From a virus: a stretch of 64,000 bases of DNA. The stretch lies in the IMG/VR virus record IMGVR_UViG_3300031746_000001; one strand, 5' to 3'. Shown here piece by piece: positions 1,144-61,719 of the stretch; the stretch's first letter is position 1, and every line of letters begins with the position of its first letter. A program made the translations under genes and the position numbers. The notes beneath the pieces are model-generated. The model saw only the letters and a list, made by a program, of their open reading frames with translations, had not been told where the DNA came from and made no database searches.

Positions 1144-1643
1144 CTCAGCACCTCCAAAATTCTCCTTGCCGTGTGTTCCCGACCAAATTCCCTAAGATAC
1201 TTGATGGCCTCTTTTAAGATTTCATGATCATCCCCAGCCAATCCCAACATGATGTTGTGTATCTTACAGAGAATACCCCTCACCTTCCCGGTAACGTGAT
1301 CATGATCAACCGTAGCCATATTACTATGCGTAGCCTCTGGATCTGAGGGATGTTTAACGGACACCCCACAGATAGCACATCTCCCCTTATGCCTTTTATA
1401 TAAAGCATCATAATCCTTCAACGAAAGTCCATACACAGACTTAAGATGATAGGCGCGCTTATCTATCGGGTGATCTTTCCTATATTGTCTATCACGAGCG
1501 AGCTTCGCAGTCCTATTCTTACGATACCACTTTTGCCAAGATTTGTGGCGAGCCGGTTTGTTGTTCTGATAGTTTCTTCTATCCCTCAGAATTTTGGCTC
1601 TTCTACGGGGGTCTGCAATAGTAGTTAAATCTATTTTCCTCAT
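1140..1643 (-). CDS. free-standing HNH endonuclease, endonuclease VII-like
   Basis: YGLS..Y...CAIC...VDHDHVTGKVRGILC..HN..LG motif; AT-rich. Confidence 0.85.
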   Translation of the reverse strand: MRKIDLTTIADPRRRAKILRDRRNYQNNKPARHKSWQKWYRKNRTAKLARDRQYRKDHPIDKRAYHLKSVYGLSLKDYDALYKRHKGRCAICGVSVKHPSDPEATHSNMATVDHDHVTGKVRGILCKIHNIMLGLAGDDHEILKEAIKYLREFGREHTARRILEVLR

Positions 1644-2686
1644 CTCAAAATCTCTAAAATTCTACGAGCCGTTATTTCCCAAGTAAATCTCTCTCGCATC
1701 CTTTGTGCGGCCTTCTTTCCCTTCTCACGAACCTCATCCCGGTGCTTGTAACAGTGCCACATAAGCTCCTTCAGATCTTCGATCTTGATCACGGCGAACC
1801 CGAACTGCTGTCCCTTGAGCTCCGGGCCGGACCCGACTATGTTCCGGGTAGGCTCAAAGCGTATGGGATATCCGATCTCATCTGTCATGTATTCGGCCAT
1901 GCCGGAGTGCGCCGGGGCGATCGCCGGGATCCCCGTCGCCATCGCCTCACAGGGAGACATCCCCCAACCCTCCCCCTGCGACGGATAGACGAATACGTCA
2001 CAGGACTTATACATCTCAGCCATCTCCCCCTCTTCATAGAGATCATTTATGACCTTGATCTTATCAAAGTTAAATCCATGAGCGAGATAGGGAGCGGATT
2101 TTATATACAGGTAGACGTCGTCCACGTCCTTGAACAGGTCGAGAAAGGCTTCCACGACCATATTGGGGTTCTTCCGAGCTGAGAGCGTCCCGGCCATGAC
2201 GAAGGTGAAAGTCTCCCGGGGCGGCCGCTCATAATACTGGTAGACCTCCACATCCGCACCCAGGGGTATGACGTAGACGGGTTGAGTGCATCCGGCCTCA
2301 ATCCATAACTGCTTATTCTGCTCGCAGGGAACGAAGTTCGCGGCTACCATGTTCGTCCCGGCGACCCAGGCTTGCGGGAAGGGAATGAACTCCCACATCG
2401 AAAAGCCGATCTTAACGCTCCCCGGGGCAAGGTTGAAGCTCGGAGGCGTCGACATGCGGATCCCGTAGGTCGTCTCCACATGGAGACCCCGCTGGGCGAT
2501 CTGCTGGACCCGGGGATGAACACCGACGAGCCTAGTATGCCCCCAGGCCGTCGTGGAATACATGTCGACCCCGAGCCGATCCAACCACATAATGATCTTC
2601 TCTGCGGCATGGCCATAACCGTCATCAATCCCTAAAGGCGCATCGAACCGCAGTTTGTTCTCGAAGGGAGGCTTGCCGGGAATCAT
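1640..2686 (-). CDS. GT4 family glycosyltransferase
   Basis: RKN, DVFVYPSQGEGWGMSPCEAMATGIP and FTWE motifs; start moved to the coupled ATG at 2686. Confidence 0.9.
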   Translation of the reverse strand: MIPGKPPFENKLRFDAPLGIDDGYGHAAEKIIMWLDRLGVDMYSTTAWGHTRLVGVHPRVQQIAQRGLHVETTYGIRMSTPPSFNLAPGSVKIGFSMWEFIPFPQAWVAGTNMVAANFVPCEQNKQLWIEAGCTQPVYVIPLGADVEVYQYYERPPRETFTFVMAGTLSARKNPNMVVEAFLDLFKDVDDVYLYIKSAPYLAHGFNFDKIKVINDLYEEGEMAEMYKSCDVFVYPSQGEGWGMSPCEAMATGIPAIAPAHSGMAEYMTDEIGYPIRFEPTRNIVGSGPELKGQQFGFAVIKIEDLKELMWHCYKHRDEVREKGKKAAQRMRERFTWEITARRILEILR

Positions 2687-3678
2687 GGCAAGACGATTGC
2701 CGAGAGAGATTTGTCCAGAAGCCTCGGATGGTAGGAAGCAAGCTCCTCCACCATCTTCGGAATCGTAGGAATCTCTTCGTAGCCTGCGAGCCTCCATAGT
2801 TCACGGTTGATATTCGCATACACGGTTGACAGCGATCGGTCCAAACCCATCTCATGTGGAGCCCTGCCCTGATGCGGTACGATCCGGATGTCCTCCCGAT
2901 GATAAGCCGTAGCAAAACACTTCAAGAGCTCAAACTTATTGATCCGGTCCCGGGGGACGACGTGCTGGACCCCCCGGAACTTCAACGTGCGATAGTCCCA
3001 CATGATCCCCCAGCAGATCTTGGCGAAGTGCAGGGATGTTATCCCGTTCCAGGTATGGCCAACGAAACCGTTTACGCTGGCCCCCCGTTCCTGGCTCCGA
3101 AACCAGTCGAGCAAGGACTGGTGGGTCCTGAGCTCCGGGCCGACGATAGAACATCGGAGATTGATAAACCGATCCGAGGAAACTTCCCCGAGGCTCTTGG
3201 TCTTGCCGTAGACGTCGGTAGCGTCATGGAGAGCGTTCTCCGAGTACAATCCCGTCTGCCCCGAGAACACGCAGTCCGTGGTAATCTGAATCACCCGGAA
3301 GCCCTCCCACTCCGAGGCGACCGCAAGGAGGTACGGGAAGATCGCATTCACCCGGACCGCCCGCTCGACGCTCTCCCGATCATTCTCCACGATATGCTTG
3401 TTGATCACCCCGATGCAATTCACGACCCAATCCACGCCCTTTAGAGATTCTCCAACATCTCCTGACACACAAAGCTCGGCATCCAGGTGTCGGAACTCCA
3501 CTCCGGGGTAGGACTCCTTCAGCTTAACGTAAAGGTCGGGTCCGGGATCCTCTTCCCGGATTTGAAACCGACCTATGGCCACCAGATGACACGCCCCATC
3601 GAGAACGCCCTGGTAGAAGTAATCCAAGACCATCGACCCGAGCATTCCAGTAGGTCCTAAGACGGCTATGCTCTTCAT
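2683..3678 (-). CDS. RmlD-like NDP-4-keto-6-deoxysugar reductase
   Basis: GPTGMLG, ITTDCVFSG and YGKTK motifs. Confidence 0.85.
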   Translation of the reverse strand: MKSIAVLGPTGMLGSMVLDYFYQGVLDGACHLVAIGRFQIREEDPGPDLYVKLKESYPGVEFRHLDAELCVSGDVGESLKGVDWVVNCIGVINKHIVENDRESVERAVRVNAIFPYLLAVASEWEGFRVIQITTDCVFSGQTGLYSENALHDATDVYGKTKSLGEVSSDRFINLRCSIVGPELRTHQSLLDWFRSQERGASVNGFVGHTWNGITSLHFAKICWGIMWDYRTLKFRGVQHVVPRDRINKFELLKCFATAYHREDIRIVPHQGRAPHEMGLDRSLSTVYANINRELWRLAGYEEIPTIPKMVEELASYHPRLLDKSLSAIVLP

Positions 3679-3680
3679 TG

Positions 3681-4358
3681 TTACTCCTTGAAAAAGCGAA
3701 TGAGACAGCGGTCACCCATAGTGTCCACCATCTCATGCTTCTTGAATCCGGCCCTGGTCGCCATCCGCACAATGCAGGGAAGCGTAAGCCCCCAATAATT
3801 GGTGTCATCGTTATTCAATTGCCGGGGGTTGTAGAAGTAGCCGATCGGATCGTCTCCCTTGATAAAATGCCCCTCCAAGACCATGCACTGCCTCGTCAGC
3901 CGAGCAAGAACCTTCATGGCCATATAGGGGTCTTCCAGGTGATAGATCGTCCCGAAGAAAAGGGAGACATCGAACTCCTCCTTGAGGGACGGTAGATCCC
4001 GGACGTCCATGTGTAGGTAGCGGATCCCGTCCACCGGCCTCCCCACCTCGTTGAGAAGTTCCCGGGCGAGCTCGAAGCCTTTCATTCCGACTTTGTTCTG
4101 GTAGGAGTCGATCGCCAAGACATCCGAAGCCCCCTGCTCCCGAAGGTAGAACGTAAACAGCCCATCCCAGGCGCCGACGTCCAAGCACTTCTTCCCGGTC
4201 ACGGCGGGGATGGCTTTAATCTTCCAGAGGGAGAACTCGGCAGGCTCCGTCCCGGGCGTCTGAAACCAATCGTTGCCCACCTTCTTGATCGAAATCCTGT
4301 GAAACCAACGAGGGACGACGTTACAGCGGGCCCTCAGTCTACCAAGCTCGGGGTTCAT
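3681..4358 (-). CDS. class I SAM-dependent methyltransferase (CmoB/DUF1698-like)
   Basis: LDVGAWDG motif I; FDxxLFFGxIYHLxDP. Confidence 0.8.
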   Translation of the reverse strand: MNPELGRLRARCNVVPRWFHRISIKKVGNDWFQTPGTEPAEFSLWKIKAIPAVTGKKCLDVGAWDGLFTFYLREQGASDVLAIDSYQNKVGMKGFELARELLNEVGRPVDGIRYLHMDVRDLPSLKEEFDVSLFFGTIYHLEDPYMAMKVLARLTRQCMVLEGHFIKGDDPIGYFYNPRQLNNDDTNYWGLTLPCIVRMATRAGFKKHEMVDTMGDRCLIRFFKE

Positions 4359-4579: not shown

Positions 4580-5004
4580 CAGATTGGCTCCTTAACTCGG
4601 ATTTCCCCATCCGGAACGAAAGGCGCCAAATCGAAGATCGCCAAAGCGTTTCTCATCGCTTCGATCCGACCCTCCGCACCGAGAAAGGTAGTGGTATAGC
4701 GAAATACTTCATCGAGAGAAGCATTATAATCCAAACTGAAAAGTATCCTGCCCGTAGTGACCTCGACGACGCAAAGCCCTTCCTTCTTCTCGGACATCGG
4801 AACGCCGTCTTTGAACCTCTGTAACTGGATGGGTCGCTGGATAAACAGCCGGAACTCCTCAAGGCCGGGAACGGTTATCTCCTCCCCGAGCTCCCGCTTC
4901 CAAGCCACCTCCCCCGGCGTCTCCGTAGTCACCGCCACGAGGAACTCCTTCTGCGATCCCTGCGGATCCAGAACTTCATCCGGATTGGTGATCTGATTAT
5001 TCAT
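4579..5004 (-). CDS. hypothetical protein with tail IRVKEPI
   Basis: ATG shares its A with the CCA of tRNA-Pro. Confidence 0.6.
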   Translation of the reverse strand: MNNQITNPDEVLDPQGSQKEFLVAVTTETPGEVAWKRELGEEITVPGLEEFRLFIQRPIQLQRFKDGVPMSEKKEGLCVVEVTTGRILFSLDYNASLDEVFRYTTTFLGAEGRIEAMRNALAIFDLAPFVPDGEIRVKEPI

Positions 5005-5080
5005 GGTCGGGGAGGCCGGGCTCGAACCGGCGACCTCCTGCTCCCAGGGCAGGCGCTCTTGCCATCTGAGCTACTCCCCG
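5004..5080 (-). tRNA. tRNA-Pro(TGG), C33
   Basis: Cloverleaf; anticodon arm CCTGC-CCTGGGA-GCAGG; CCA encoded. Confidence 0.9.
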
Positions 5081-5090
5081 ATCATCACAG

Positions 5091-5167
5091 TGGTCGGGGT
5101 GAGAGGATTTGAACCTCTGACGTCCTGGTCCCGAACCAGGCGCTCTACCGGACTGAGCCACACCCCG
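5091..5167 (-). tRNA. tRNA-Pro(CGG)
   Basis: Loop TTCGGGA; CCA encoded. Confidence 0.92.
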
Positions 5168-5173
5168 ATCTTT

Positions 5174-5248
5174 AGCGGGGACGACGGGTTTCGATCCCGC
5201 GACCTCCTGCGTGGCATACAGGCGCTCTACCATCTGAGCTACACCCGC
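5174..5248 (-). tRNA. tRNA-Gly(GCC), irregular acceptor stem
   Basis: Loop ATGCCAC; 2 extra nt in the 3' acceptor strand; no CCA. Confidence 0.7.
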
Positions 5249-5256
5249 TCGTCTTA

Positions 5257-5344
5257 TGGCGGAGCGAGAATGATTCGAACATTCGGGACCCGTGAGTCCA
5301 ACGGTTTAGCAAACCGTCGCCTTCGACCACTCGGCCATCGCTCC
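5257..5344 (-). tRNA. tRNA-Ser(GCT)
   Basis: Loop TTGCTAA; long variable arm; CCA. Confidence 0.9.
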
Positions 5345-5350
5345 GGGATC

Positions 5351-5426
5351 TGGTGCCGGAGGGCGGTATCGCGCCGCCTACGCCAGGCTCTTCAGACCTG
5401 CGCTCTACTATTTGAGCTACTCCGGC
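5351..5426 (-). tRNA. tRNA-Phe(GAA)
   Basis: Loop CTGAAGA; atypical T-loop CGCGATA; CCA. Confidence 0.85.
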
Positions 5427-5431
5427 TAATC

Positions 5432-5516
5432 TGGTGCCGAGAGAGGGATTTGAACCCTCACGCCAAAGGCACACGCCCCTCGAACGTGCGTGTCTACCAA
5501 GTTTCACCATCTCGGC
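5432..5516 (-). tRNA. tRNA-Leu(GAG), C33
   Basis: CACGT-TCGAGGG-GCGTG; variable arm; CCA. Confidence 0.88.
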
Positions 5517-5522
5517 ATTAAG

Positions 5523-5593
5523 CTGAGGGAGAAGGAGTCGAACCCTCATCACAAGGTTCAAAGCCTTGCGGCCTACCGTTGGCCTATCCCCCA
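5523..5593 (-). tRNA. tRNA-Gln(TTG)
   Basis: Loop CTTTGAA; no CCA. Confidence 0.85.
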
Positions 5594-5596
5594 TCG

Positions 5597-5680
5597 TGGT
5601 GTCGGGCCGGGGATTCGAACCCCGACGATCGCTCAAATGGGTTTGAGCCATTCGCGTATACCAAGTTCCGCCAGCCCGAC
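5597..5680 (-). tRNA. tRNA-Leu(CAA)
   Basis: Loop CTCAAAC; CCA. Confidence 0.88.
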
Positions 5681-5683
5681 GTT

Positions 5684-5759
5684 TGGCTGAGGGACTGGGA
5701 TTCGAACCCAGATACCGAGGGTCAGAGCCTCGTATCCTATCCAATTAGATGATCCCCCA
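5684..5759 (-). tRNA. tRNA-Gln(CTG)
   Basis: Loop CTCTGAC; CCA. Confidence 0.9.
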
Positions 5760-5762
5760 GAA

Positions 5763-5850
5763 TGGCGGAGACGCCGGGATTTGAACCCGGGGAGCTTTTC
5801 AGCTCGACTGCTTTCCGGACAGCCATCTTAAGCCTCTCGATCACGTCTCC
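5763..5850 (-). tRNA. tRNA-Ser(GGA), C33
   Basis: GCTGT-CCGGAAA-GCAGT; CCA. Confidence 0.88.
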
Positions 5851-5858
5851 CATTACAG

Positions 5859-5945
5859 CGGAGGGCAGGGGACTCGAACCCCCGAGCGCTTTTACACGCC
5901 AGCAGTTTTCAGGACTGCCTCCTCGTACCAGCCGGATCGCCCTCC
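5859..5945 (-). tRNA. tRNA-Ser(TGA), C33
   Basis: GCAGT-CCTGAAA-ACTGC; G at position 8; no CCA. Confidence 0.82.
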
Positions 5946-5950
5946 ATCTA

Positions 5951-6037
5951 TGGCGGAGAGTGAGGGAATCGAACCCTCGACCGCAGTTAACGGTAACGGT
6001 TTTCGGAACCGCTTCCTCGACCAACCGGACACTCTCC
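5951..6037 (-). tRNA. tRNA-Ser(CGA), C33
   Basis: GCGGT-TCCGAAA-ACCGT; CCA. Confidence 0.85.
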
Positions 6038-6044
6038 CTGAAAT

Positions 6045-6132
6045 TGGTGGTGAGGGCAGGATTTGAACCTGCGTGGCTTGTCGGCTTCCGCTCTACAGGC
6101 GGACCCAATCGACCGGACTCTGGCACCTCACC
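6045..6132 (-). tRNA. tRNA-Tyr(GTA)
   Basis: Loop CTGTAGA; variable arm; CCA. Confidence 0.88.
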
Positions 6133-6364
6133 CTTTCTTCTTGACCTTCGGGATCCGGACCGTGGACAGAATCCCCCGAACTTCCATGATCCCTTCCACC
6201 TTCCCGGCAAAGAAGCAGAAGGCTTGAAGGCTCTCCTTCGAGTTTCCCCGCTCGACCAGAGCCTTAAATTGACGCTCGCCTAACTGCTTGTCGGCCCAGG
6301 CGACCGTTCCTTTCTTTGGACCCTCAGGCTCCTTCTTCTTGTGTGATCTCACTGGTTTCTTCAT
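6128..6364 (-). CDS. small basic hypothetical protein inside the tRNA array
   Basis: AAAGGAGG SD before ATG; fills the only large gap in the array. Confidence 0.65.
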   Translation of the reverse strand: MKKPVRSHKKKEPEGPKKGTVAWADKQLGERQFKALVERGNSKESLQAFCFFAGKVEGIMEVRGILSTVRIPKVKKKG

Positions 6365-6383
6365 GCATCCCTCCTTTGGTTAA

Positions 6384-6456
6384 AGCTGGCAAGAGGCATC
6401 GAACCCCCAACCTTCTCCTTACGAAAGAGACGCTCTACCGTTTGAGCTATGCCAGC
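6384..6456 (-). tRNA. tRNA-Thr(CGT)
   Basis: Loop TTCGTAA; no CCA. Confidence 0.85.
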
Positions 6457-6460
6457 ATTC

Positions 6461-6537
6461 TGGACGCGGCAGGGGGAGTCGAACCCCCGCATAGCGGTTC
6501 TGCAGACCGCCGCCTTTAGCCACTTGGCGATGCCGCG
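6461..6537 (-). tRNA. tRNA-Cys(GCA)
   Basis: Loop CTGCAGA; CCA. Confidence 0.9.
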
Positions 6538-6543
6538 ATATCT

Positions 6544-6618
6544 TGGGGTGACCGGGGAGTGTCGAACTCCTGTTCCGTGGGCCACAGCCACGTGTCCTAC
6601 CGTTGGACGACGGCCACC
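6544..6618 (-). tRNA. tRNA-His(GTG)
   Basis: Loop CTGTGGC; G-1 and C73; CCA. Confidence 0.88.
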
Positions 6619-6621
6619 ATA

Positions 6622-6695
6622 AGCCGACGAGAGGAGTCGAACCCCCAACCTTCGCATTACAGGTGCGTTGCTCTACCGGGTTGAGCTACATCGGC
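6622..6695 (-). tRNA. tRNA-Thr(TGT), C33
   Basis: Loop CCTGTAA; no CCA. Confidence 0.85.
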
Positions 6696-6699
6696 ATTC

Positions 6700-6774
6700 T
6701 GGCTCTGGCGGGAGGAGTCGAACCTCCAACAACCCGCTTAACAGCCGGGCACTCTACCGTTGAGTCACGCCAGA
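6700..6774 (-). tRNA. tRNA-Asn(GTT)
   Basis: Loop CTGTTAA; CCA. Confidence 0.88.
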
Positions 6775-6778
6775 ACAT

Positions 6779-6863
6779 TGGTGGGGGAGAAGGGATTTGA
6801 ACCCTTACGCCATAAGCACTGGTGTCTGGAACCAGCGTGTCTACCAAATTTCACCACTCCCCC
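6779..6863 (-). tRNA. tRNA-Leu(CAG), C33
   Basis: CTGGT-TCCAGAC-ACCAG; CCA. Confidence 0.88.
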
Positions 6864-6866
6864 GTT

Positions 6867-6942
6867 TGGTGGGCCCTCCGGGAATCGAACCCGGAACCTT
6901 CGGCTTATGAGACCGGCGCTCTTCCATTTGAGCTAAGGGCCT
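6867..6942 (-). tRNA. tRNA with CAT anticodon (Ile2-like or elongator Met)
   Basis: Loop CTCATAA; CCA. Confidence 0.85.
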
Positions 6943-6943
6943 C

Positions 6944-7019
6944 TGGTGGGGACGGGAGGACTCGAACCTCCAATCTCCTGCTTGTAGGGCAGGCATTCTC
7001 GCCATTGAAATACATCCCC
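6944..7019 (-). tRNA. tRNA-Val(TAC), C33
   Basis: CCTGC-CCTACAA-GCAGG; CCA. Confidence 0.88.
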
Positions 7020-7025
7020 AATTTT

Positions 7026-7102
7026 TGGCAGGAGCGAGAGGATTTGAACCCCTATCAACACGGGTTGGAGCCGTGCGTTCTGATCCATTGAACTACGCTC
7101 CT
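7026..7102 (-). tRNA. tRNA-Trp(CCA)
   Basis: Loop CTCCAAC; CCA. Confidence 0.9.
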
Positions 7103-7103
7103 A

Positions 7104-7192
7104 TGGTGGCGGGCCTGGGATTCGGACCCAGACGGCTATGTAAAGGCCATGAGGGTTTAAGCCTCACTTGTCTACCATTTCATCAGCCCGCC
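7104..7192 (-). tRNA. tRNA-Leu(TAA)
   Basis: Loop CTTAAAC; long variable arm; CCA. Confidence 0.88.
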
Positions 7193-7205
7193 CTTTTATA
7201 AGTCC

Positions 7206-7237
7206 TGGTTGCGGGGCTGGGAGTCGCACCCAGAATC
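7206..7237 (-). pseudogene. orphaned 3' part (T-arm, acceptor strand, CCA) of tRNA-Met
   Basis: ATTCTGGG-TGCGACT-CCCAG-CCCCGCA-ACCA, paralogous to the 3' end of the tRNA at 7923-7997. Confidence 0.8.
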
Positions 7238-7305
7238 CGACAAGGACTTGCTTTCCGTAACCCTACTGTGCTATGATTTAACCGTAACCTAAATCGGAGA
7301 TACCC

Positions 7306-7911
7306 ATGAGAAAAGTATGGCAGTCCGCCGGTGGCATAGCCACAGCTAAAATCCTCAGAGAACGGGCCCTCAAAAAATATTACAAGCATCCCTCAGTCTG
7401 CCTTCAATGCCATAAGGTTATCGAGGTTCCAGATGGCCACAAGGTTGGAGAAACGAAATCCAAATGCTTCTGCAACCACACTTGTGCCGCAATTTTCAAT
7501 AATGCCCGAAGACGCCGAACCCACAAAACATACTCCTATGAATGTGAACGATGCCACGGTTCATATCCCATTCAATATAATTTCAAAAGACGGTTTTGCA
7601 ATGACTGCCTTCAAATTATCAAGTTCGAAAGAAGCATTGCGAGCAAAACCAAAGGCGAATTCTTTAAATCAAAGAACACTTGGCAATTAGCTAGGAGCAA
7701 AATAGCTCGCATGGCAAGACTGATCATAAGGAAATCCGGGATTAAAGCAAAATGTAGAATCTGTGGATATCGAAAACACGTTGAATGCTCTCACAATAAA
7801 AGGGTCGCAGACTTCCCGGACACGGCTTTCATATCTGAAATTAACAATATCAAGAACCTTTCTTATCTCTGCCCTAACCATCACTGGGAACATGAAAACG
7901 GATTACTATAA
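7306..7911 (+). CDS. free-standing HNH endonuclease, antisense to the tRNA array
   Basis: FCxxxC, CRICG...ECSH...N...NL..LCPNHHWE; AT-rich; own SD and TTGCTT-18-TATGAT promoter. Confidence 0.85.
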   Translation: MRKVWQSAGGIATAKILRERALKKYYKHPSVCLQCHKVIEVPDGHKVGETKSKCFCNHTCAAIFNNARRRRTHKTYSYECERCHGSYPIQYNFKRRFCNDCLQIIKFERSIASKTKGEFFKSKNTWQLARSKIARMARLIIRKSGIKAKCRICGYRKHVECSHNKRVADFPDTAFISEINNIKNLSYLCPNHHWEHENGLL

Positions 7912-7922
7912 TCTTCTTAATC

Positions 7923-7997
7923 TGGGAGCGGGGCTCGGATTCGCACCGAGAATTTTCAGGTTATGGGCCTGACGAGTTGCTATTGCTCCACCCCGCC
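7923..7997 (-). tRNA. tRNA-Met(CAT), initiator-like acceptor, C33
   Basis: TCAGG-CCCATAA-CCTGA; GGCGGGG/CCCCGCT acceptor; CCA. Confidence 0.85.
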
Positions 7998-8001
7998 CCT
8001 T

Positions 8002-8064
8002 CTGACTTACCGGATTGGTCTATCCCGCTACGCCCCTGACTTACTGTTGGTCTACCCCGCAACG
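8002..8064 (-). repeat. two tandem tRNA-Met-like 5' fragments
   Basis: TGCGGGG-TA-GACC..AA-GTCAG and AGCGGGA-TA-GACC..AA-GTCAG, i.e. acceptor 5' strand plus D-arm. Confidence 0.6.
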
Positions 8065-9618
8065 CTACCTGCTGGCGCCAGCACATCGCTTCACCCGGCC
8101 ATTCGCGTAAATCACTTCGACCTGATTGAACAGCGGGGCATCGTCCCGCACCCTCTTCAGGCTCATCTGGATATACTCATCCGAGACGTCTATCCCGATG
8201 GCATCCCTCCCGAGACGCTGGGCCTCGAAGCAGGCTGTCCCCGATCCCACGAATGGATCCAGGACGACTGCCGGAATGGGCTCCCCGGCGTTGCACTTGC
8301 ACGTCGGTCGCCATCCGAGATGTTCGATCTCCACGTAACGCATAGCATTCCCCGTCTCGCCTTTGAGCTCTCCGTATTTCCCCTTGTATCTTGACGGACG
8401 GAACCGTGGATCTGTTCGGTCGAGCTCGTGACGCTCGAGGCTCTTCCGGTTCACGACCCGGGCCCACTGGGATCCGCACTTCCTGCAGACGCCCCGGAAG
8501 CTCGTCGACACGTTCACCATGACCTCCACGAGGGCCGGAGGGAAGGTGGCGAAGTGGGCGCCTTTGAATCCCGTCGTGTTGATCGTCCAGACCGTCCTGC
8601 GGTTTCGGGTCTCCCTGGTTTCCATCGGAACGTATTCTTCAAGCCTGGACCGTGCTGAGATGTGCTTCGGTCCGATCCCCGGCCACTCCGAGGTGACGGC
8701 CTCTTCCCTGACAGCATCCCCGTCTCCGAAGTAACGCTCGCCCTTCGTAAACATAAAGACGTACTCGTGAGCCTTCGTCGGCCTCCACGCTCCCCTCCGA
8801 AGAACGAGGCCATCGTTCGGGAGGCACTCCGCACACCCGGGGCAGGGCTTATATTCAGCCCAGGGATTGTGGGACAGGCCCGGCCCGGCGTCTCCCGAAG
8901 TATTCCCGCTCTTGGTAGCCCACTCGGTAGACGCCTTCCGGAGATTCTTCACTTTCACCCTGTGCTTCTCCCAACGCCATCCGTCGATGCTCTCGGGCAT
9001 TACGTTCTCCTTCTTCCAGATGCAGTCGGATCGTAGCCACCAGCCGCTCATCTGGAAGGCCAGGGCGACCCTCCACGGCACGGCGCACATGTCCTTCATC
9101 TTGAGGCCGTCCCCTTTCCGGTTGTAGGGTCGGCAGTAGATGTCTCCTCCCTTTCCGTCTCGGAAATCTCCCCCTGGACCGCCGCTCCCCATGTAGGAGT
9201 CTCCGAGGTTAAGCCAGAATATCCCGTCGTCCCGCAAGACCCTCCGGATACCCTCCCCAATCACGCCCAGATGCTCCACGTAGAGCTCCAGGGTAGGCTC
9301 CATGCCAAGGACACCCCTCCACGCCCCGCAACGCCCACAGAAGCATCCTTGATCCCCTGTCTTCCTGAGCCCGTGCTGAGCGGCCTTCGTCCCGACCGCC
9401 ACACAGCTCCCTGGACCGTGCTGGCCGGACTTTCGCATGGGGTGAGGGATCGTAGCCCCCCACTTGTGTTTACAGTCCTTCTTACCTCCCCACACGGATG
9501 GGGGACTCTTATACGCCCGGAGTCCGTAGTAGGGCGGGCTGGTTATTACGGCGTGGACGCTCTTCTCCGGCAGAGAGGCCAGCACATCCCGGGCGTCTCC
9601 GATGTAAAGACTAACCAT
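8065..9618 (-). CDS. beta-class N4/N6 DNA methyltransferase with Cys-rich insertions
   Basis: TSPPY, WLNLGDSY, HFATFP and LDPFVGSGT; start moved to ATG 9618 after the tRNA. Confidence 0.9.
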   Translation of the reverse strand: MVSLYIGDARDVLASLPEKSVHAVITSPPYYGLRAYKSPPSVWGGKKDCKHKWGATIPHPMRKSGQHGPGSCVAVGTKAAQHGLRKTGDQGCFCGRCGAWRGVLGMEPTLELYVEHLGVIGEGIRRVLRDDGIFWLNLGDSYMGSGGPGGDFRDGKGGDIYCRPYNRKGDGLKMKDMCAVPWRVALAFQMSGWWLRSDCIWKKENVMPESIDGWRWEKHRVKVKNLRKASTEWATKSGNTSGDAGPGLSHNPWAEYKPCPGCAECLPNDGLVLRRGAWRPTKAHEYVFMFTKGERYFGDGDAVREEAVTSEWPGIGPKHISARSRLEEYVPMETRETRNRRTVWTINTTGFKGAHFATFPPALVEVMVNVSTSFRGVCRKCGSQWARVVNRKSLERHELDRTDPRFRPSRYKGKYGELKGETGNAMRYVEIEHLGWRPTCKCNAGEPIPAVVLDPFVGSGTACFEAQRLGRDAIGIDVSDEYIQMSLKRVRDDAPLFNQVEVIYANGRVKRCAGASR

Positions 9619-9620
9619 TG

Positions 9621-9696
9621 TCGGGGCGATGGGATTTGAACCCATGATCGCCTGCTTGAAGGGCAGGTGTGTTAGGCCGGACTACACCACGCCCCG
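9621..9696 (-). tRNA. tRNA-Glu(TTC), C33
   Basis: CCTGC-CCTTCAA-GCAGG; Asp/Glu-type D-arm; ends ACAA. Confidence 0.82.
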
Positions 9697-9959
9697 ATCT
9701 GCGATATCCGTTCTTCCGAAGCATAAATTCAATGCCGTCCAGGATTCGGCCCAACAGCTCTTCCCGACGAGGCTGTTTCGTTCTCTTCCTCATGGACGTG
9801 ATCACCATCGCCATTATCCTGTCCCACGTCTTCCACGTTCTGAGGATCCCGCCTCGGTGAAGGTTATCCCCGAGCGTTTCCAGCATCCGATCCCTCACCT
9901 TACAATTCGGCCTCATCATGTAGAGAACCTGGACCCTGGCGCACATCAGTGAAGTCACC

Positions 9960-10790
9960 TTAGAAGAAGAACAGTGCCCTGGACTTTTGCGTATGGTCTT
10001 CTGCAATCTTCGCATAGCTCGGTTTCAATTCAATGCCCACCGAATGACGGTTGAGCTTGATCGACGCATCAAGCGTCGTCCCAACCCCCACAAACGGATC
10101 CAGAACCCAGTCCCACTCGTCCGTGAACAGCGTGATAAACCACTCCGGAAGCACCTGCGGGAATGCGGCACTGTGAATCCGGTTCTGTGTCTCTGTCGGC
10201 AAGGTTAAAACGTTCGTTGGGTAGACCTTCGTCCGGCCAACCCAGTTTGCGATCTTGGACCCGAAGCCGCTCTGAGTCTTGTTCGTCCTCCGGATGTAGT
10301 CATCCCCCCACATCTTCCGTGCCCGGGTGACCGTCCTCTCACTGGCCGGAATCATCACCCGATCCTGGAACATCTTGAACTTGGGCGTCTTGTTAAACTG
10401 CAGAAGCCGCTCCCAGGCGTCCCGGAATCGGTTCGGCCACTTCCCCGGATAACAGCAAACCTTGTTCCAGATGAACTCCTCCGTCCACAACCAACCCTGA
10501 TCCACCAACGCCAGAATCAACTCGAGGACGTAAGTAAGCCGCTGTCCGTTCTCCGCACTCTCCTTGATATTCAGGATGAACGTCCCGGTCGGCTTCAGGG
10601 TCCGTAGGAACTGCTCACTGCGGGGGAGAAACCATTCCACATACTTCTCCGGAGGGACACCCTGATACGTTTTCTTCCGGCGATCCGAGTAAGGCGGGGA
10701 AGTAATTATTAAATCGAAACAATTCTCGGGATATTTAACGAGAACATCCAAACAATCCCCCACCTCGACGCTCGATTTTAATTCTCTCAT
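9960..10790 (-). CDS. beta-class N4/N6 DNA methyltransferase
   Basis: TSPPY, HSAAFP and LDPFVGVGTT. Confidence 0.92.
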   Translation of the reverse strand: MRELKSSVEVGDCLDVLVKYPENCFDLIITSPPYSDRRKKTYQGVPPEKYVEWFLPRSEQFLRTLKPTGTFILNIKESAENGQRLTYVLELILALVDQGWLWTEEFIWNKVCCYPGKWPNRFRDAWERLLQFNKTPKFKMFQDRVMIPASERTVTRARKMWGDDYIRRTNKTQSGFGSKIANWVGRTKVYPTNVLTLPTETQNRIHSAAFPQVLPEWFITLFTDEWDWVLDPFVGVGTTLDASIKLNRHSVGIELKPSYAKIAEDHTQKSRALFFF

Positions 10791-10851
10791 AGACTTGCTA
10801 TTGGTAAATCACTTTATGGTATACTTATATACACACTCAAGCGGAGGTCTC

Positions 10852-11517
10852 ATGAACACACTCCTAATATCTTACCTGGCCGGAGCGATGGACTCTGATG
10901 GCTGGTTTATGATACACCACTACCATCATAATCCAAAGTGGAATGACATTTATACTGAACGCATTGGGCTCAAACAAGTAACCCCTCAAATCCCGAATCT
11001 TCTTCTTCAAAACTTCGGAGGCTATATCTACAAGGTAAAACCATCCACGCCCAACGGGAAAATGCTCTATTCATTTGATTGCCGTGGAGCCCTGGCGGTT
11101 AAAGCCTGCGAAGCCCTCCTCCCACATCTCGTCATAAAAAGGAGACAAGCAGAGTTAATCATCGAATTCAGCAAAACCCGAGAAAATAACTGTCAGACCA
11201 TATCTCAGTGGTTTCAAAGAGAGTTCCCAAACTGGCAAACCATGAAGCTCATCACCACTAAAGAAGCCCAGAAAATACTCGGATATGAAAACCCAAACAG
11301 CATATACCAGGCCATCTACACGGGGACCCTTCTCTCGATTCCACACAATAGATCGGGAAGAAAATCCATTCCCTGCATTCCTATGTCTCTCGTCGAGCGC
11401 CTCTCAAAATTAAATTTCCCCACTAACCGCAGAAAAACCCTTCCCCCGGAACTTGTCGCCTGGCGTGAACGTCTACACAGAGAAGTTAAAAATCTCAACA
11501 AAGTCGGTCTCGTATAG
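10852..11517 (+). CDS. free-standing LAGLIDADG endonuclease
   Basis: YLAGAMDSDG and LLPHLVIKRRQA; GGAGG SD before ATG 10852; AT-rich. Confidence 0.85.
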   Translation: MNTLLISYLAGAMDSDGWFMIHHYHHNPKWNDIYTERIGLKQVTPQIPNLLLQNFGGYIYKVKPSTPNGKMLYSFDCRGALAVKACEALLPHLVIKRRQAELIIEFSKTRENNCQTISQWFQREFPNWQTMKLITTKEAQKILGYENPNSIYQAIYTGTLLSIPHNRSGRKSIPCIPMSLVERLSKLNFPTNRRKTLPPELVAWRERLHREVKNLNKVGLV

Positions 11518-11621
11518 TAGGGAGGCGACGTCATAATGAGATCGAATTTATCAGCCTCGTGGCTCCGGAGAACCTCGAGGCAGTCACCTTCGTAAACCTT
11601 CGAGATTAACTCCCTACTCAA
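11518..11621 (-). pseudogene. orphaned original N-terminus of the 9960-10790 methyltransferase
   Basis: MSRELISKVYEGDCLEVLRSHEADKFDLIMTSPPY versus MRELKSSVEVGDCLDVLVKYPENCFDLIITSPPY. Confidence 0.85.
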
Positions 11622-12468
11622 ACTTGGGCTCCTTGAGGAAACTTCCCTGCGGCTTGGTTCTCAAGAAGCAGGTCTCCCCCCGTTCAAGATGATCAAATAG
11701 ACCCTCTTGTAGGACCATCCCGTCCCGGACCAGCCTGTTCTTGGTGACCTCGCAGTATTTCCCGTCCTTGTCGTAGCCGATTCCCATCCGGCGATCGAGA
11801 GCACAGGCCACCAGGGTTGTTCCCGACCCGACGAAAGGATCCAGCACAGTGTCCCCGACGTAGCTCAGAAGGCGCATACACCTTCGGGGGAGCTCGACGG
11901 GGAAGGGCGCCGGGTGACCAGCCACTGCGGGATCCTCCCCTCCGATGTTCCAGATCCCGATCGTCCATTCAATGAACTCCTCCCGGGTGATATTCGACTC
12001 CCCCGCTTTGTCCTTCGCCCAGTTCTTCTTGTAGAGGACGACGATGGCCTCCGCAGGTTGAAGGATGTGCGGGGCACTCGCTGACATCCACGATCCCCAG
12101 GCTGTCCGGCTTGGAACTGCCTGCTTATTCCACACGACGGTCGAGTGATACAGCCAACCGACCTTCTGGGCGAGCCAAGTGAAGTCGGCCAGCGTCCCCC
12201 GATGCCCCCACTTGTGCGTATTGAACGGCACGTTCAAACAGAACCGGCAATCGTCCTTCCCGAGCTTGAAACATTTCGCCATCCAGGTCTCGCTGAACTT
12301 GAGAAACTCCTCGTAGGGGAGATTGTCCTCGTGGCCGGAGTAGTTAATCCCGACGTTATACGGCGGTGACGTAACTATCAGATCGACCGACCCTGCAGGA
12401 ACGTCCTTCGCCTTAAGGAAGTCCCCGTGATAAACCTTCTGATCCCTGGCTGTGAAATAAAGGCTCAT
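11614..12468 (-). CDS. beta-class N4/N6 DNA methyltransferase
   Basis: TSPPYNVG, HPAPFP and LDPFVGSGTT. Confidence 0.92.
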   Translation of the reverse strand: MSLYFTARDQKVYHGDFLKAKDVPAGSVDLIVTSPPYNVGINYSGHEDNLPYEEFLKFSETWMAKCFKLGKDDCRFCLNVPFNTHKWGHRGTLADFTWLAQKVGWLYHSTVVWNKQAVPSRTAWGSWMSASAPHILQPAEAIVVLYKKNWAKDKAGESNITREEFIEWTIGIWNIGGEDPAVAGHPAPFPVELPRRCMRLLSYVGDTVLDPFVGSGTTLVACALDRRMGIGYDKDGKYCEVTKNRLVRDGMVLQEGLFDHLERGETCFLRTKPQGSFLKEPKFE

Positions 12469-44599: not shown

Positions 44600-44678
44600 G
44601 TATTGGGGTTAGATCGCATGGCAGGACTTTGGACCTGCCTCGTGCCTTAAGTGCGGGGATGACCCCGCACCCCATCGG
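44600..44678 (-). ncRNA. candidate structured intergenic RNA motif, copy 1
   Basis: GTGCGGGG/CCCCGCAC stem, GCAGG/CCTGC stem and AACCCCAA; repeated at 45364-45487. Confidence 0.5.
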
Positions 44679-45077
44679 CTATAGACCTTTGGCTGTGACC
44701 TTGCCGCCCTTCAGCTTGGCTTCCGCCCGAGCTTTCATGTCGGCATCGATCTGGACCTTCGGATCGGTCTTGGGCTTGGCATCCGGAGCGACATCAGCCG
44801 GGGCACGCACGGCTGGCTTCTCGGCCTTCGGATTGGCCTCCGGCTTCTTGGCTTCGGCCTTCGCTTTCGGTTGGGCCTTCGGAGCGGCCGCCTTCGGAGC
44901 GGCCTTCTTGGATCCCGGCTTGGCCACGTGCCCGCCCTTCTTGAAAGCCTTCATGATTCGCCACACCATGCCTCTCGAGATCTTCAGGTCCCGAACGATC
45001 TGGGAATCCTTCTTGCCCTCCTTGTGCAGGGCGATCACCCGATCACGGTATGCGTCTGCGGACTTCTTATTTGACAT
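44679..45077 (-). CDS. HTH protein with histone H1-like K/A/P-rich tail
   Basis: SQIVRDLKISRGMVWRIM; KKAAPKAAAPKA. Confidence 0.7.
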   Translation of the reverse strand: MSNKKSADAYRDRVIALHKEGKKDSQIVRDLKISRGMVWRIMKAFKKGGHVAKPGSKKAAPKAAAPKAQPKAKAEAKKPEANPKAEKPAVRAPADVAPDAKPKTDPKVQIDADMKARAEAKLKGGKVTAKGL

Positions 45078-51317: not shown

Positions 51318-51464
51318 GCCCCTTTGAGAAAAATCTTTCTCGAAGGGGCCTGTTCGTTCACCATCTCATTTCAGGGACGGGCTGGGCACGGGACAGGGCA
51401 TCTGAGGTCGGTCTCGGCCTTAGATGCGAACGGTGGGCATCTGGTGGCTGTCTGGGAGGCCTTC

Positions 51465-52391
51465 CTACAGGGGAATGAGAGGGACTAAAGCGTCATAAAC
51501 TATATCTACAGTGAGCGACGCCATGCAGGGCCTGCTCGGGCATTGAAACGCATCGAGATAATACCCTTCGGGCCGACAGCAGTGCAAATTGTCACAGCTC
51601 CCCGGGATCCACAGGTTCGTATTCATGGCGTGGCCGGAGATGTGGGGGTTGCTTCTTCCGAAGAGAACGACCCCCGGTTTCCCGACGGCGGGCCCTCCGT
51701 GCCCGATGAAGGATTCGACCGTGACGTAGGACGAGCAGAAGCGAAGGATCGAAAGGGTCTGCCGGATCTTGAGGCCCCCGCAAAGGTTGGCGGTTACCCC
51801 GGGCACACAGGTCTCCCCGTTGCCCCCAATTTGGAGGACGGCGACACCCGCCTCCCGGAGCCGTTTTGTGAGGGCTACCCAGCGATCGTGGAACCAGTCC
51901 TTGTTGGGCGTCCCCTTCTTCCCGGTGAGAGGAATGTTAGCGGCCGCACTGTTGATCAGGACGACCTTCTCGCCAAAACCCTTCATAAAATTCATGCCCC
52001 AAGTGAGCTCGGACGGGCGGAGGAAAACCTCAAGTTCGTCATTGTCCCAGGGAAGCCCGCAGATCTCCGACCAAGCCTTAGATTGGAGCCCGTCGTAGAC
52101 ATGATTCCAGCGCCGGGTGTAGAGGTCGGCCCGGATGGTTTTTCGGGAATCTTTCTGTGGGATTACCCAGTCCTCATAGAACTCCCGAGCATCCTCCGCA
52201 GAGATGTGAAAGAGCTTGTCGATGTTCGGATTGCCCTGAAGGGCTTCCCAGTAGCATGCCGAGACGATGATGTGGTGATCCGGGTAGGCCTTCTTGGTCG
52301 CCCGGAGCATCGGGGTGACGCAGATGTGATCCCCGATGCCCCCGTCGATTACGAGGGTGAACCAGTTAGATGGCCGGGGGGTTTGTTCCAT
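51465..52391 (-). CDS. GT9 (heptosyltransferase-like) glycosyltransferase
   Basis: GGIGD...TP, NPNID, KDW..., VES..H, VVLFG, PCM. Confidence 0.85.
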   Translation of the reverse strand: MEQTPRPSNWFTLVIDGGIGDHICVTPMLRATKKAYPDHHIIVSACYWEALQGNPNIDKLFHISAEDAREFYEDWVIPQKDSRKTIRADLYTRRWNHVYDGLQSKAWSEICGLPWDNDELEVFLRPSELTWGMNFMKGFGEKVVLINSAAANIPLTGKKGTPNKDWFHDRWVALTKRLREAGVAVLQIGGNGETCVPGVTANLCGGLKIRQTLSILRFCSSYVTVESFIGHGGPAVGKPGVVLFGRSNPHISGHAMNTNLWIPGSCDNLHCCRPEGYYLDAFQCPSRPCMASLTVDIVYDALVPLIPL

Positions 52392-52506
52392 CGAGCTCCC
52401 TTTTCTCGAACTCGGAAAGTATAGCACGACATTTCGGACACAACTCCAAACTCATATTTGAGGAGTCTGCGTCACAGAGATTACAGAGCCGGGGGGTTCG
52501 TTCCAT
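52366..52506 (-). CDS. 46-aa CxxC...CxxC peptide inside a direct repeat
   Basis: MERTPRLCNLC...CPKC...ELDGTNPPAI*; flanked by about 30-bp imperfect direct repeats. Confidence 0.5.
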   Translation of the reverse strand: MERTPRLCNLCDADSSNMSLELCPKCRAILSEFEKRELDGTNPPAI

Positions 52507-53374
52507 CGAGCTCTGCCATCCTGCGGTCGAATAACTGTTGGTCGGCAATCCAGTAGCTCTCGGGGTTAGGGACGCCTTTGGTCACCCGGATGCCGCCCTC
52601 GAGGGAAGCATAATGCCAGGCGATCGCCCGGGGCTGGACCAGGAGGGTATAGCCCTTCTTGAACATGTGGTAGGTGAGATCGGTCTCCCAGCGGTGGCCT
52701 GCGGGGGAATAATCGAGGCATATCCCTCCGGAGGCATCCACGGCGGATCCCGAGACGAGGAAGCAGGAGTTAATGTGCTCGGCCTCCTTGAGATTGACGT
52801 CCGGGGAGAGGATCTGGTGGAGAAGAGGGGTTAAGGGCCTTATCTTCCCCTGAAAGAGGTTCACGGACGCCCAGTTATTCGGGGCAGTCTGGCTCTCGAT
52901 GGTCATCCGGGGTAAGAGATAGACCCCTCCCACGCCCCCCAGCATCTTCCCTGGACCCAGGATTTGCTCGCACTGCACAAAAGGAACGACCATCCACTGA
53001 AGGTAATTCGGAAAGAGCACGAAGTCGTCGTCGATGTTGGCCACGAGCTCATGGCGTCGGTTAACGAACCCCGCATAGAAGGCGGCATGGGGCCCCCTCT
53101 TCGGCCCCCAGATCACCCGCCAGTTATGCCCCTGGTGGTTGAGCTGATCGAGAATATTGCATGTCGGGAAGGCCTCGCTGATCGGCCTTGCCCCTTCGGT
53201 GTCGTCCACGACGGTCAAATCCCAGTTCCCGTAGTTCTGAGCGAGCAGGGAGGACAAAAGCATGCACAGGTTGGTGTACCGCTCCTTCGTGGTGACCACG
53301 ACTTCGATCCGGTAGCGGGCTTCGTAGGTGTCGAACAGCGGGTTGAACTCGGTTATCAGATAATCAGGTAGCAT
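52481..53374 (-). CDS. GT2 family glycosyltransferase
   Basis: VVDD, IDDD, ETDL, WHY...GGIR. Confidence 0.8.
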   Translation of the reverse strand: MLPDYLITEFNPLFDTYEARYRIEVVVTTKERYTNLCMLLSSLLAQNYGNWDLTVVDDTEGARPISEAFPTCNILDQLNHQGHNWRVIWGPKRGPHAAFYAGFVNRRHELVANIDDDFVLFPNYLQWMVVPFVQCEQILGPGKMLGGVGGVYLLPRMTIESQTAPNNWASVNLFQGKIRPLTPLLHQILSPDVNLKEAEHINSCFLVSGSAVDASGGICLDYSPAGHRWETDLTYHMFKKGYTLLVQPRAIAWHYASLEGGIRVTKGVPNPESYWIADQQLFDRRMAELDGTNPPAL

Positions 53375-54476
53375 AGTGATGCCCTAAAATGATCTTGGCT
53401 ACGATCCTTGAAACAGACCCGTTCTCGTATTCCGGTGGAACTCTCCACCAGTCCTCCCGTTCTCCCGTCGTTCCAGAAAAGACGGTCTCCACGGCTTCCA
53501 GAATAGCTTCCGGATCGTCCTTCGATAGAATGTTGCTCCCGCACTCGAGGGTCTCCGGGCGTTCTGTCGTATCCCGGACCGTGACGGCGGGAACCTTGAA
53601 AATGGTTGCCTCCTCCTGGACCGTCCCGCTGTCGGTCAAGATACAGCAGGCGTTCTGCTCGAGCCTCACGAAGTCGAAGAAGCCAAAGGGCTCACGGAAG
53701 GCAACCCACTTACTGATATCCAGCTCGTCGGCCTGATTCAGCTTCTCCTTCGTCCGGGGATGCAGGCTAACAACAACAGGCATCGAATAATGATCCCCCA
53801 CGAGGGACAGACCCTGGATGATGTTCTTCAGACGGTCCGGGACGTCTACGTTCTCCTGCCGATGGAAGGTTGCCAGAAAATACTGCCCGGACTGCAGGGG
53901 AGGCGGCCCGACAGAAAATAAAACATCAGATTGCCTTATCTGTTCTCCCCAGCGGCAGATGACCTCGTAGATCGGATTCCCCGTGACGTAAATACGGTTG
54001 GGCGGGATCCCCTCCCGCAAGAGGTTCTCCTTGCTCCGCTGGGTGTAGGGCATCAAGATGTCGCTGGCGTGGTCGATCACCTTCCGGTTAACCTCCTCCG
54101 GCACCCGATCATCGTAACACCTATTCCCCGCTTCCATGTGGTAGACCGGGATCCCCATTCTCTTGGCCACGATCGCCGCCAGCCCGCTGTCGGTATCCCC
54201 CAGAATAAGAACCCGGTCCGGCCTCTCCTTCCGAAAGAGATCTCCCACCTTCACAAAAATGTCGGCAACCCGATTTTCGAAGTTCTCCCCTGTGATCATG
54301 AGGCGCCGGAGAATGTTCTTGATTTCGAGCTCCTCAAAGAACACCTCGGAGAGGCAGGGATCGCTGTTCTGCCCGGTGTGGACGACGATCTGATCACATA
54401 GGGAATCGAGCCCCCGGATTACGTTGGAAAGCCTGATAATTTCCGGGCGGGTCCCGAACAGGGTTGCGATCTTCAT
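53364..54476 (-). CDS. UDP-N-acetylhexosamine 2-epimerase (FnlC/WbjD-like)
   Basis: GTRPEIIRLS, HTGQN, LGDT, HMEAGNRC, PEEVNR, TDSGTVQEE, TERPE. Confidence 0.93.
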   Translation of the reverse strand: MKIATLFGTRPEIIRLSNVIRGLDSLCDQIVVHTGQNSDPCLSEVFFEELEIKNILRRLMITGENFENRVADIFVKVGDLFRKERPDRVLILGDTDSGLAAIVAKRMGIPVYHMEAGNRCYDDRVPEEVNRKVIDHASDILMPYTQRSKENLLREGIPPNRIYVTGNPIYEVICRWGEQIRQSDVLFSVGPPPLQSGQYFLATFHRQENVDVPDRLKNIIQGLSLVGDHYSMPVVVSLHPRTKEKLNQADELDISKWVAFREPFGFFDFVRLEQNACCILTDSGTVQEEATIFKVPAVTVRDTTERPETLECGSNILSKDDPEAILEAVETVFSGTTGEREDWWRVPPEYENGSVSRIVAKIILGHHYAT

Positions 54477-56956: not shown

Positions 56957-57113
56957 GGCTTAATTCTCCTCACCGCATTGCGTGATACGCATTCCCTCTG
57001 TCCATTCTCAAACTCAATCAGGATGCTATTCATTTTCCCCCTCGCTACGATTCGACACTTACGCCCATAGAGTTCCCTCCTCTTGGGATTATTTTTCCAT
57101 GCGTAGTAATGGG

Positions 57114-61631: not shown

Positions 61632-61666
61632 GAATTAAAGGTTCTCCTTCTGCATATTGGCTAAAC

Positions 61667-61695
61667 ATTATAAGGGATTTCAATTTGATTGTCAA
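61667..61695 (-). promoter_or_regulatory. sigma70 promoter of the glycosylation cluster
   Basis: TTGACA-17-TATAAT. Confidence 0.85.
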
Positions 61696-61719
61696 GACCC
61701 TCCTGGGAAAAAGTTTAAT

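Follow-up and report, generated by a model that had tools for sequence, protein, structure and literature searches.

Cytidine in place of the near-invariant U33 in ten of 25 tRNA genes of an uncultured tailed phage

Results and Discussion

A phage tRNA array with ten C33 genes

The window analyzed here is a stretch of 64,000 nt from an uncultured 160-kb tailed phage (IMG/VR record IMGVR_UViG_3300031746_000001), and it holds 25 tRNA genes, all on the minus strand between positions 5004 and 9696. The uridine at position 33 of the anticodon loop (U33) is textbook-invariant in elongator tRNAs, and in ten of these 25 genes it is replaced by cytidine (C33). ARAGORN called 24 of the genes and Rfam added one, tRNA-Phe(GAA). 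Twenty-three of them form a near-continuous stretch (5004-7192) in which the spacers are usually 2-10 nt long and the CCA end is for the most part gene-encoded; outside it lie the second CAU tRNA (7923-7997) and tRNA-Glu (9620-9696).

From the low-numbered end, the first C33 gene is tRNA-Pro(UGG) (5004-5080; ARAGORN, Rfam 63 bits) with the loop CC-UGG-GA, followed by tRNA-Leu(GAG) (5432-5516; Rfam 44.5 bits), which has the loop UC-GAG-GG, a long variable arm and A73. Three serine tRNAs stand next to each other: tRNA-Ser(GGA) (5763-5850; loop CC-GGA-AA, G73; ARAGORN and Infernal alignment), tRNA-Ser(UGA) (5858-5945; loop CC-UGA-AA; ARAGORN) and tRNA-Ser(CGA) (5951-6037; loop UC-CGA-AA). Further along lie tRNA-Thr(UGU) (6622-6695; loop CC-UGU-AA, Rfam 58.2 bits), tRNA-Leu(CAG) (6779-6863; loop UC-CAG-AC, A73, Rfam 52.9 bits) and tRNA-Val(UAC) (6944-7019; loop CC-UAC-AA, Rfam 64.4 bits). 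The two outlying genes complete the set, namely the second CAU tRNA, of Met or Ile2 type (loop CC-CAU-AA, Rfam 49.2 bits), and tRNA-Glu(UUC) (loop CC-UUC-AA, Rfam 62.6 bits), the sole C33 tRNA of the window with a pyrimidine at position 35. The anticodon stem CCUGC/GCAGG is common to Val-UAC, Pro-UGG and Glu. Interleaved with the C33 genes are 15 tRNAs with U33 (5091-7192): Pro-CGG, Gly-GCC, Ser-GCU, Phe-GAA, Gln-UUG, Leu-CAA, Gln-CUG, Tyr, Thr-CGU, Cys, His, Asn, Met-CAU, Trp and Leu-UAA. One of these, tRNA-Phe(GAA) (5354-5426; Rfam 51.4 bits), has the T-loop CGCGAUA where the canonical form is UUCRANY, and because of this non-canonical T-loop it was missed by ARAGORN.

A preliminary description of this DNA had claimed C33 in ten of 25 tRNAs, and ARAGORN returned the same ten genes with the same loops letter for letter (cctggga, tcgaggg, ccggaaa, cctgaaa, tccgaaa, cctgtaa, tccagac, cctacaa, cccataa and ccttcaa). 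In its folds all ten have a 7-nt loop on a stem of 5-6 bp, with C as the second base of the loop. Infernal agrees with ARAGORN on position 33, its alignment, displayed for the three UCN-Ser tRNAs, having C in the U33 column in each. We found no alternative register of the C33 tRNAs that puts U at position 33. In bacteria tRNA identity rules ask for A73 in Leu and G73 in Ser. Both long-arm Leu tRNAs with C33 have A73 and the three Ser tRNAs with C33 have G73, and since the discriminators match the amino acids read from the anticodons, the anticodon frame is independently supported. Eight of the ten pass the Rfam tRNA model RF00005 (cut-off 29 bits) with 44-64 bits. Ser-UGA and Ser-CGA have their best match in the long-arm tRNA-Sec model, with 45 and 41.6 bits, under its cut-off of 47; long-arm tRNAs often score low against RF00005.

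Integrity of the C33 genes

We compared position 33 with other conserved positions of the 24 ARAGORN-called tRNAs. Position 33 deviates in 10 of the 24, G53, C56, A58 and C61 in none, U54 in one and U55 in two, and a single D-loop is without GG. Comparison with a sister phage, described below, showed 25 double compensatory stem changes array-wide, eight of them within C33 tRNAs, and 14 single pairing-preserving stem changes, four of them within C33 tRNAs. The C33 tRNA genes are thus intact and conserved, and their departure is specific to position 33 rather than a part of general decay.

These data bear on the possibility, raised with the preliminary description, that the C33 genes are decaying or unexpressed pseudogenes, or that C33 is an artefact of numbering. 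In its favor one can point to Ser-UGA and Ser-CGA, which fall under the Rfam tRNA cut-off, and to the second CAU tRNA, which has G55 and lies beside an HNH insertion. Against it stand intact cloverleaves, canonical T-loop and D-loop invariants and stem changes that are compensatory, and the C33 genes are interleaved with U33 tRNAs in a tight array and are retained in the sister phage. The numbering is concordant between Infernal and ARAGORN, the discriminators fit the anticodons and low scores are common for long-arm tRNAs. By sequence the genes are not pseudogene-like, and we consider this explanation highly improbable. With respect to the second CAU tRNA, its G at position 55 is in the T-loop and the gene adjoins an antisense open reading frame (ORF) with an HNH domain (7306-7911, plus strand).

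Sister phage and origin of C33

The sister phage (IMG/VR UViG_3300035660_000001) has a genome of 160,139 bp with terminal repeats, and its proteins are ~91-92% and its tRNAs 92% identical to those of the window. It carries 35 tRNAs, ten of them with C33: Glu, the second CAU tRNA, Val, Leu-CAG, Leu-GAG, Thr-UGU, the three Ser tRNAs and, in addition, Ala-UGC. Nine of the ten C33 tRNAs of the window are accordingly retained as C33. The alleles of Ser-CGA, Val and Glu are identical in the two phages and Leu-GAG has the same loop in both, and the C33 loop is unchanged even where the alleles are only 75% (Thr-UGU) or 77% (second CAU tRNA) identical. In the sister a block of ten tRNAs (158976-160015), namely two Lys, Ile, four Arg, Gly-UCC, Ala-UGC (C33) and Asp, stands between Gly-GCC and Pro-CGG, and the window has no counterpart at that place. 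No further close relatives came from a metagenome scan with the flanking methyltransferase, and IMG/VR held only the one sister contig.

The exception among the ten is Pro-UGG, where positions 32-33 are CC in the window and UU in the sister, and where six of the seven differences between the alleles cluster in the anticodon arm. In three outgroup contigs (G012, G013 and G016) the Pro-UGG loop is tttggga, that is, U33, and since the sister and all three outgroups have UU, C33 was recently gained in the window lineage. The new arm of Pro-UGG equals that of Val and Glu, which suggests that this C33 arose via a short conversion patch. As the ten tRNAs mostly differ in their anticodon stems, most of the C33s arose separately. 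The description of C33 as a parallel change is borne out by these differing stems together with the Pro-UGG gain confined to the window lineage. That the change was also selected is plausible, as it is specific to position 33, is kept in alleles of 75-77% identity and sits in tRNAs with compensatory stem changes, but with tRNAs 92% identical the two phages are too close to provide proof of purifying selection at one base.

A clustered patch like that in Pro-UGG resembles a repair tract, and HNH and LAGLIDADG genes abound in the genome, including one within the tRNA region. Selection could in principle act at the level of DNA, with variants of the anticodon arm protecting the tRNA genes from homing endonucleases of rival phages and being spread by repair tracts. 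A single cleavage site, however, cannot explain the same base change in ten genes with differing surroundings, and C33 is also found in arrays of unrelated phages. This is the least probable of the explanations we considered.

The next relatives, as judged from DnaB, are at most 40% identical, and their tRNAs are ~64% identical to those of the window, too distant for orthology. Six phages with DnaB 32-39% identical carry C33 in 5/43, 2/44, 1/47, 1/47, 1/40 and 0/13 tRNAs (0-12%), which makes the richness in C33 a derived trait of this small lineage. High C33 counts are also found in unrelated metagenomic phages, with 13/37 tRNAs in G003 and 7/37 in G002. A tblastn search with 222 ORFs of the sister genome gave no match in G003, and the five matches confined to G002 were weak and seemingly generic. 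Since these phages share almost no genes with the present lineage (none in the case of G003), a common phage-encoded cause is disfavored. The C33 sets of G002 and G003 differ almost completely; fast turnover at position 33 between these two was considered and rejected, as their arrays are only 60-80% identical overall. Separately, the tRNA-rich contigs G003, G004 and G006 contain tRNAs with the stop-codon anticodons CUA, UUA and UCA, a hint of suppressor tRNAs or stop-codon recoding.

The lack of shared genes also bears on the earlier proposal that C-to-U editing turns C33 back into U at the RNA level. Cytidines of the anticodon loop are edited in some systems, for example C32 of trypanosome tRNA-Thr, and in Vibrio cholerae tRNA-Tyr C32 is converted to pseudouridine. 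This general precedent is what speaks for editing; nothing in the present data supports it. A search for phage-encoded copies of the CMP/dCMP-type deaminase domain PF00383 gave none in the complete sister genome or in four further C33-carrying phages, and Pfam scans of the window ORFs gave no member of the deaminase families, PF00383 included. Among the C33-rich phages there is no shared gene from which a common editor could come, and one editor would need to act on ten different loop sequences. The proposal is thus left unsupported, and we regard editing as very improbable.

C33 in phage and cellular tRNAs

For a matched background we scanned IMG/VR for the U33 anticodon arm CCTGCCTNNNAAGCAGG and scored all other tRNAs in the returned loci, the samples being partial arrays that surround one chosen arm sequence. 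Among 703 phage tRNAs from 79 contigs, 32 had C33 (4.55%), seven A33 (~1%) and one G33 (~0.1%), and other invariant positions deviated in 1-3.5%. Against 4.55%, the 10/25 (40%) of the window has a binomial probability of 6.6e-8 for ten or more. The share of C33 ranged from 0 to 20% across the 23 sampled arrays with at least 15 tRNAs, and the 40% of the window is the highest fraction measured.

On bacterial contigs the same scan found C33 in 9 of 233 tRNAs, a small sample. Two long arrays, of 30 and 15 genes, account for six of the nine, and a seventh, with an 8-nt loop, is doubtful, which leaves about 2/187 (~1%) in ordinary tRNAs. The cellular background is thus less clean than expected. C33 recurs in a minority of phage and array tRNAs, and the present phage is an extreme case. 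The two bacterial arrays come from metagenome-assembled genomes (MAGs); one packs 30 genes into 3 kb (L314, an Acidobacteriota MAG) and the other has 15 genes (L390), with two and four C33 tRNAs, respectively, and they are either chromosomal or binned phage DNA.

Anticodon context of C33

C33 is unevenly distributed over the anticodons of the window. It is present in 8 of the 11 tRNAs that read four-codon boxes and in 2 of the 14 others (p = 0.005), and in 9 of the 15 tRNAs with a purine at position 35 as compared to 1 of the 10 with a pyrimidine. The association with purine 35 was also seen in other full arrays (32/209 vs. 13/203, p = 0.004), and in the background sample the odds ratio was 1.95 (p = 0.07). 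Background phage tRNAs with C33 lean towards decoders of ANN codons (7.8% vs. 3.0%). In the U-turn, U33 makes one contact from its N3 to phosphate 36 and a second from its O2' to N7 of a purine at position 35, the latter being stronger than the contact to a pyrimidine (Grosjean and Westhof, PMC5041475). Because C33 would lose the first of these contacts and keep the second, we take the purine-35 association as a tolerance filter on where C33 can exist.

The four-codon-box pattern could be read in another way, namely that C33 loosens the U-turn and widens wobble, enabling one phage tRNA to read a whole four-codon box (Val-UAC, Thr-UGU, Pro-UGG, Ser-UGA and, in the sister, Ala-UGC). Besides the bias itself (p = 0.005), every tRNA with U34 of the Pro, Ser, Thr, Val and Ala boxes has C33 in the window or the sister, U34 tRNAs of split boxes (Gln, Leu-UAA, Lys, Arg-UCU) are without it, Glu excepted, and there is just one phage tRNA each for Val and Ala, even though GUA makes up only 7% of the Val codons. 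On the other hand, Leu-GAG, Leu-CAG, Ser-GGA and Ser-CGA also carry C33, and for these the argument from widened wobble is weak; phage tRNAs generally show no such box bias, and we found no published evidence that C33 widens wobble. We consider widened wobble improbable.

A more serious contender is that C33 is tolerated and nearly neutral, a product of weak constraint at position 33, of drift and of short gene-conversion patches passed among adjacent tRNA genes, mainly at sites where purine 35 and four-codon boxes make it forgivable, with no benefit and no target enzyme. Several of the observations above fit such a course of events. C33 belongs to the phage background (4.55%), where A33 (~1%) and G33 (~0.1%) are rarer, as if the pyrimidine transition were the mildest change, and other invariant positions also deviate in phage tRNAs at the rates given above. 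A tolerance filter would produce just these biases towards purine 35 and four-codon boxes. The arm CCUGC-CC...GCAGG recurs in Pro-UGG, Val and Glu of the window, where the Pro change is moreover a clustered patch; both suggest conversion. The C33 sets of G002 and G003 are almost wholly different. Drift alone, however, leaves unexplained why the window has 40% where its DnaB relatives have 0-12% and the 23 sampled arrays at most 20%, and why the departure is at position 33 only, with the T-loop invariants intact. Conversion covers at most three of the ten C33 tRNAs, as most of the stems are unrelated. We see in tolerance and drift a real possibility, if the less probable one, and rank it as the main rival to the reading that follows.

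A possible role in recognition by host enzymes

The C33 variant of this phage is genuine. It affects position 33 specifically, is strongly enriched and has been inherited, and the anticodon context filters where it occurs. From this we infer an adaptive value, with a U33-reading host enzyme as the target. Our favored reading, which we hold tentatively and at somewhat less than an even chance, is that these are working, co-transcribed phage tRNAs in which a maintained and structurally tolerated C33 alters their recognition by host enzymes that read the anticodon loop. The change from U33 to C would remove the N3-H contact to phosphate 36, and the contact of the ribose 2'-OH to N7 of purine 35 would stay. 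A C33 loop might then still decode, especially if position 35 is a purine and in four-codon boxes, in which misreading at the wobble position would do no harm. U33 would be one of the few bases on which loop-binding proteins can rely, and C33 could thus change how host enzymes see the tRNA. Candidate readers are anticodon-loop nucleases and toxins, and modification enzymes such as the machinery for N6-threonylcarbamoyladenosine at position 37 (t6A37). In this way the phage might keep a private tRNA pool while that of the host is attacked or altered.

There are precedents for parts of this scheme. U33C abolishes t6A37 formation by the E. coli TsaBCDE enzymes (PMC8887486), and phage tRNAs with altered anticodon arms resist the PARIS nuclease AriB (PMC11464382, PMC12409363). 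C33 can thus change recognition by some loop-binding enzymes, not all. The general hypothesis of nuclease-insensitive phage tRNAs was put forward by van den Berg et al. in 2023 (PMC10264068), an eLife paper that does not mention position 33, and a full-text literature search found no paper describing C33 in phage tRNAs.

Several points weigh against a role in recognition. The anticodon nuclease gamma-toxin cleaves a stem-loop with U33C as well as the wild type (PMC2275089), and where escapes of phage tRNAs are documented, the changes are at positions 39-41 and not at 33 (PMC11464382, PMC12409363). A domain search of the sister genome gave no RtcB or RNA_ligase repair genes, hence no sign of pressure from anticodon nucleases. 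At one base, a comparison of two phages with tRNAs 92% identical has low statistical power. The patterns of four-codon boxes and of purine 35 emerged post hoc, after the data had been seen, and the former is absent from the phage background (12/273 vs. 20/430). The same data also fit simple tolerance without benefit.

One of the closest parallels is phage T5, whose tRNA-Lys(UUU), Thr(UGU) and Asn(GUU) counter AriB. Like the C33 tRNAs they are phage tRNAs with an altered anticodon arm and an otherwise canonical structure, and the proposed purpose is the same, to keep translation running while host tRNAs are attacked. The T5 changes, however, fall on positions 39 and 41, where AriB cuts, and for them resistance has been measured, whereas in the present phage it is U33 that differs, in 40% of the set. 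A functional C33 tRNA is found in the cytoplasmic initiator tRNA-Met of multicellular eukaryotes, where C33 is an anti-determinant for the bacterial and yeast t6A37 enzymes (PMC8887486, PMC5041475). That case differs in being a single eukaryotic initiator, as compared to ten phage tRNAs of which nine are clearly elongators, and only two of the ten (Thr-UGU and the second CAU tRNA) decode ANN codons. The same substitution, often in the same loops (cctacaa, cctgtaa, cccataa, tcgaggg), occurs in other arrays with C33, such as those of Mycobacterium phage Wildcat, of G003 and of the bacterial MAG contigs; in Wildcat it is present in three of the 23 tRNAs of the stretch examined. The pattern of the window lineage is nevertheless its own, with four-codon-box tRNAs that have purine 35, while phage tRNAs at large lean towards ANN decoders.

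Should the C33 tRNAs be in use, the phage would run up to 40% of its own tRNA set without U33, and about one in 20 phage tRNAs carries C33. Either decoding depends less on the U-turn base than has been assumed, or bacteria harbor a selective agent that reads U33. The latter, if true, would mean an undescribed specificity of tRNA-directed defence or toxins, together with a simple sequence marker for phage counter-defence. A broader form of the idea, possible but on balance unlikely, is that phage and mobile-array tRNAs carry C33 as a general stealth mark against a still undescribed class of host immune or toxin enzymes that grip the anticodon loop by U33; phages under such pressure would convert their tRNAs as far as structure permits, beginning with those of purine 35 and of four-codon boxes, and the present lineage would be among the most advanced. 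As Wildcat is in culture, the question of C33 can be tested at the bench.

Genomic surroundings of the tRNA array

The genes of the window are on the minus strand and include a DnaB-type helicase, a primase-like protein, several DNA methyltransferases and many homing endonucleases (HNH, LAGLIDADG). We found no close cultured relative, megablast giving no match and the best DnaB match being 31% identical. At least four DNA methyltransferase genes lie at 8065-12468 and 61912-63969 (minus strand), three of them N6_N4_Mtase and one Eco57I/MmeI-like with a TaqI_C specificity domain, and a Dam-type gene is found elsewhere in the window; tRNA-Glu sits between two DNA methyltransferase genes.

Two groups of genes for sugar-nucleotide and glycan metabolism (1640-4358 and ~51400-61700, minus strand) encode a Polysacc_synt_2 dehydratase, a UDP-GlcNAc 2-epimerase, NAD epimerases, glycosyltransferases of the GT2, GT4 and GT9 types and methyltransferases. 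They are an unusual cargo for a phage and could have a role in glycosylation of DNA or of the virion. Homologues of the UDP-GlcNAc 2-epimerase that are ~58% identical occur in soil MAGs of Acidobacteria, Chloroflexi and Firmicutes, which gave no usable host signal. About 650 nt downstream of the tRNA array, beyond two small ORFs, is a gene for a class I methyltransferase of 225 amino acids (3681-4358, minus strand). Among named families it matched best to the tRNA U34 enzyme CmoB (53 bits, cut-off 209; PDB 4p7c with E = 1e-4) and to TIGR04290 (62.7 bits, cut-off 300), both far under the cut-offs, and it is without the CmoB N-terminal domain. Its neighbors are an epimerase and a glycosyltransferase, and membership of the sugar cluster is more likely than a link to the tRNAs. 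Finally, an intergenic match to the type-P5 twister ribozyme is located at 44622-44679 (minus strand; Rfam 48.9 bits, cut-off 37.6).

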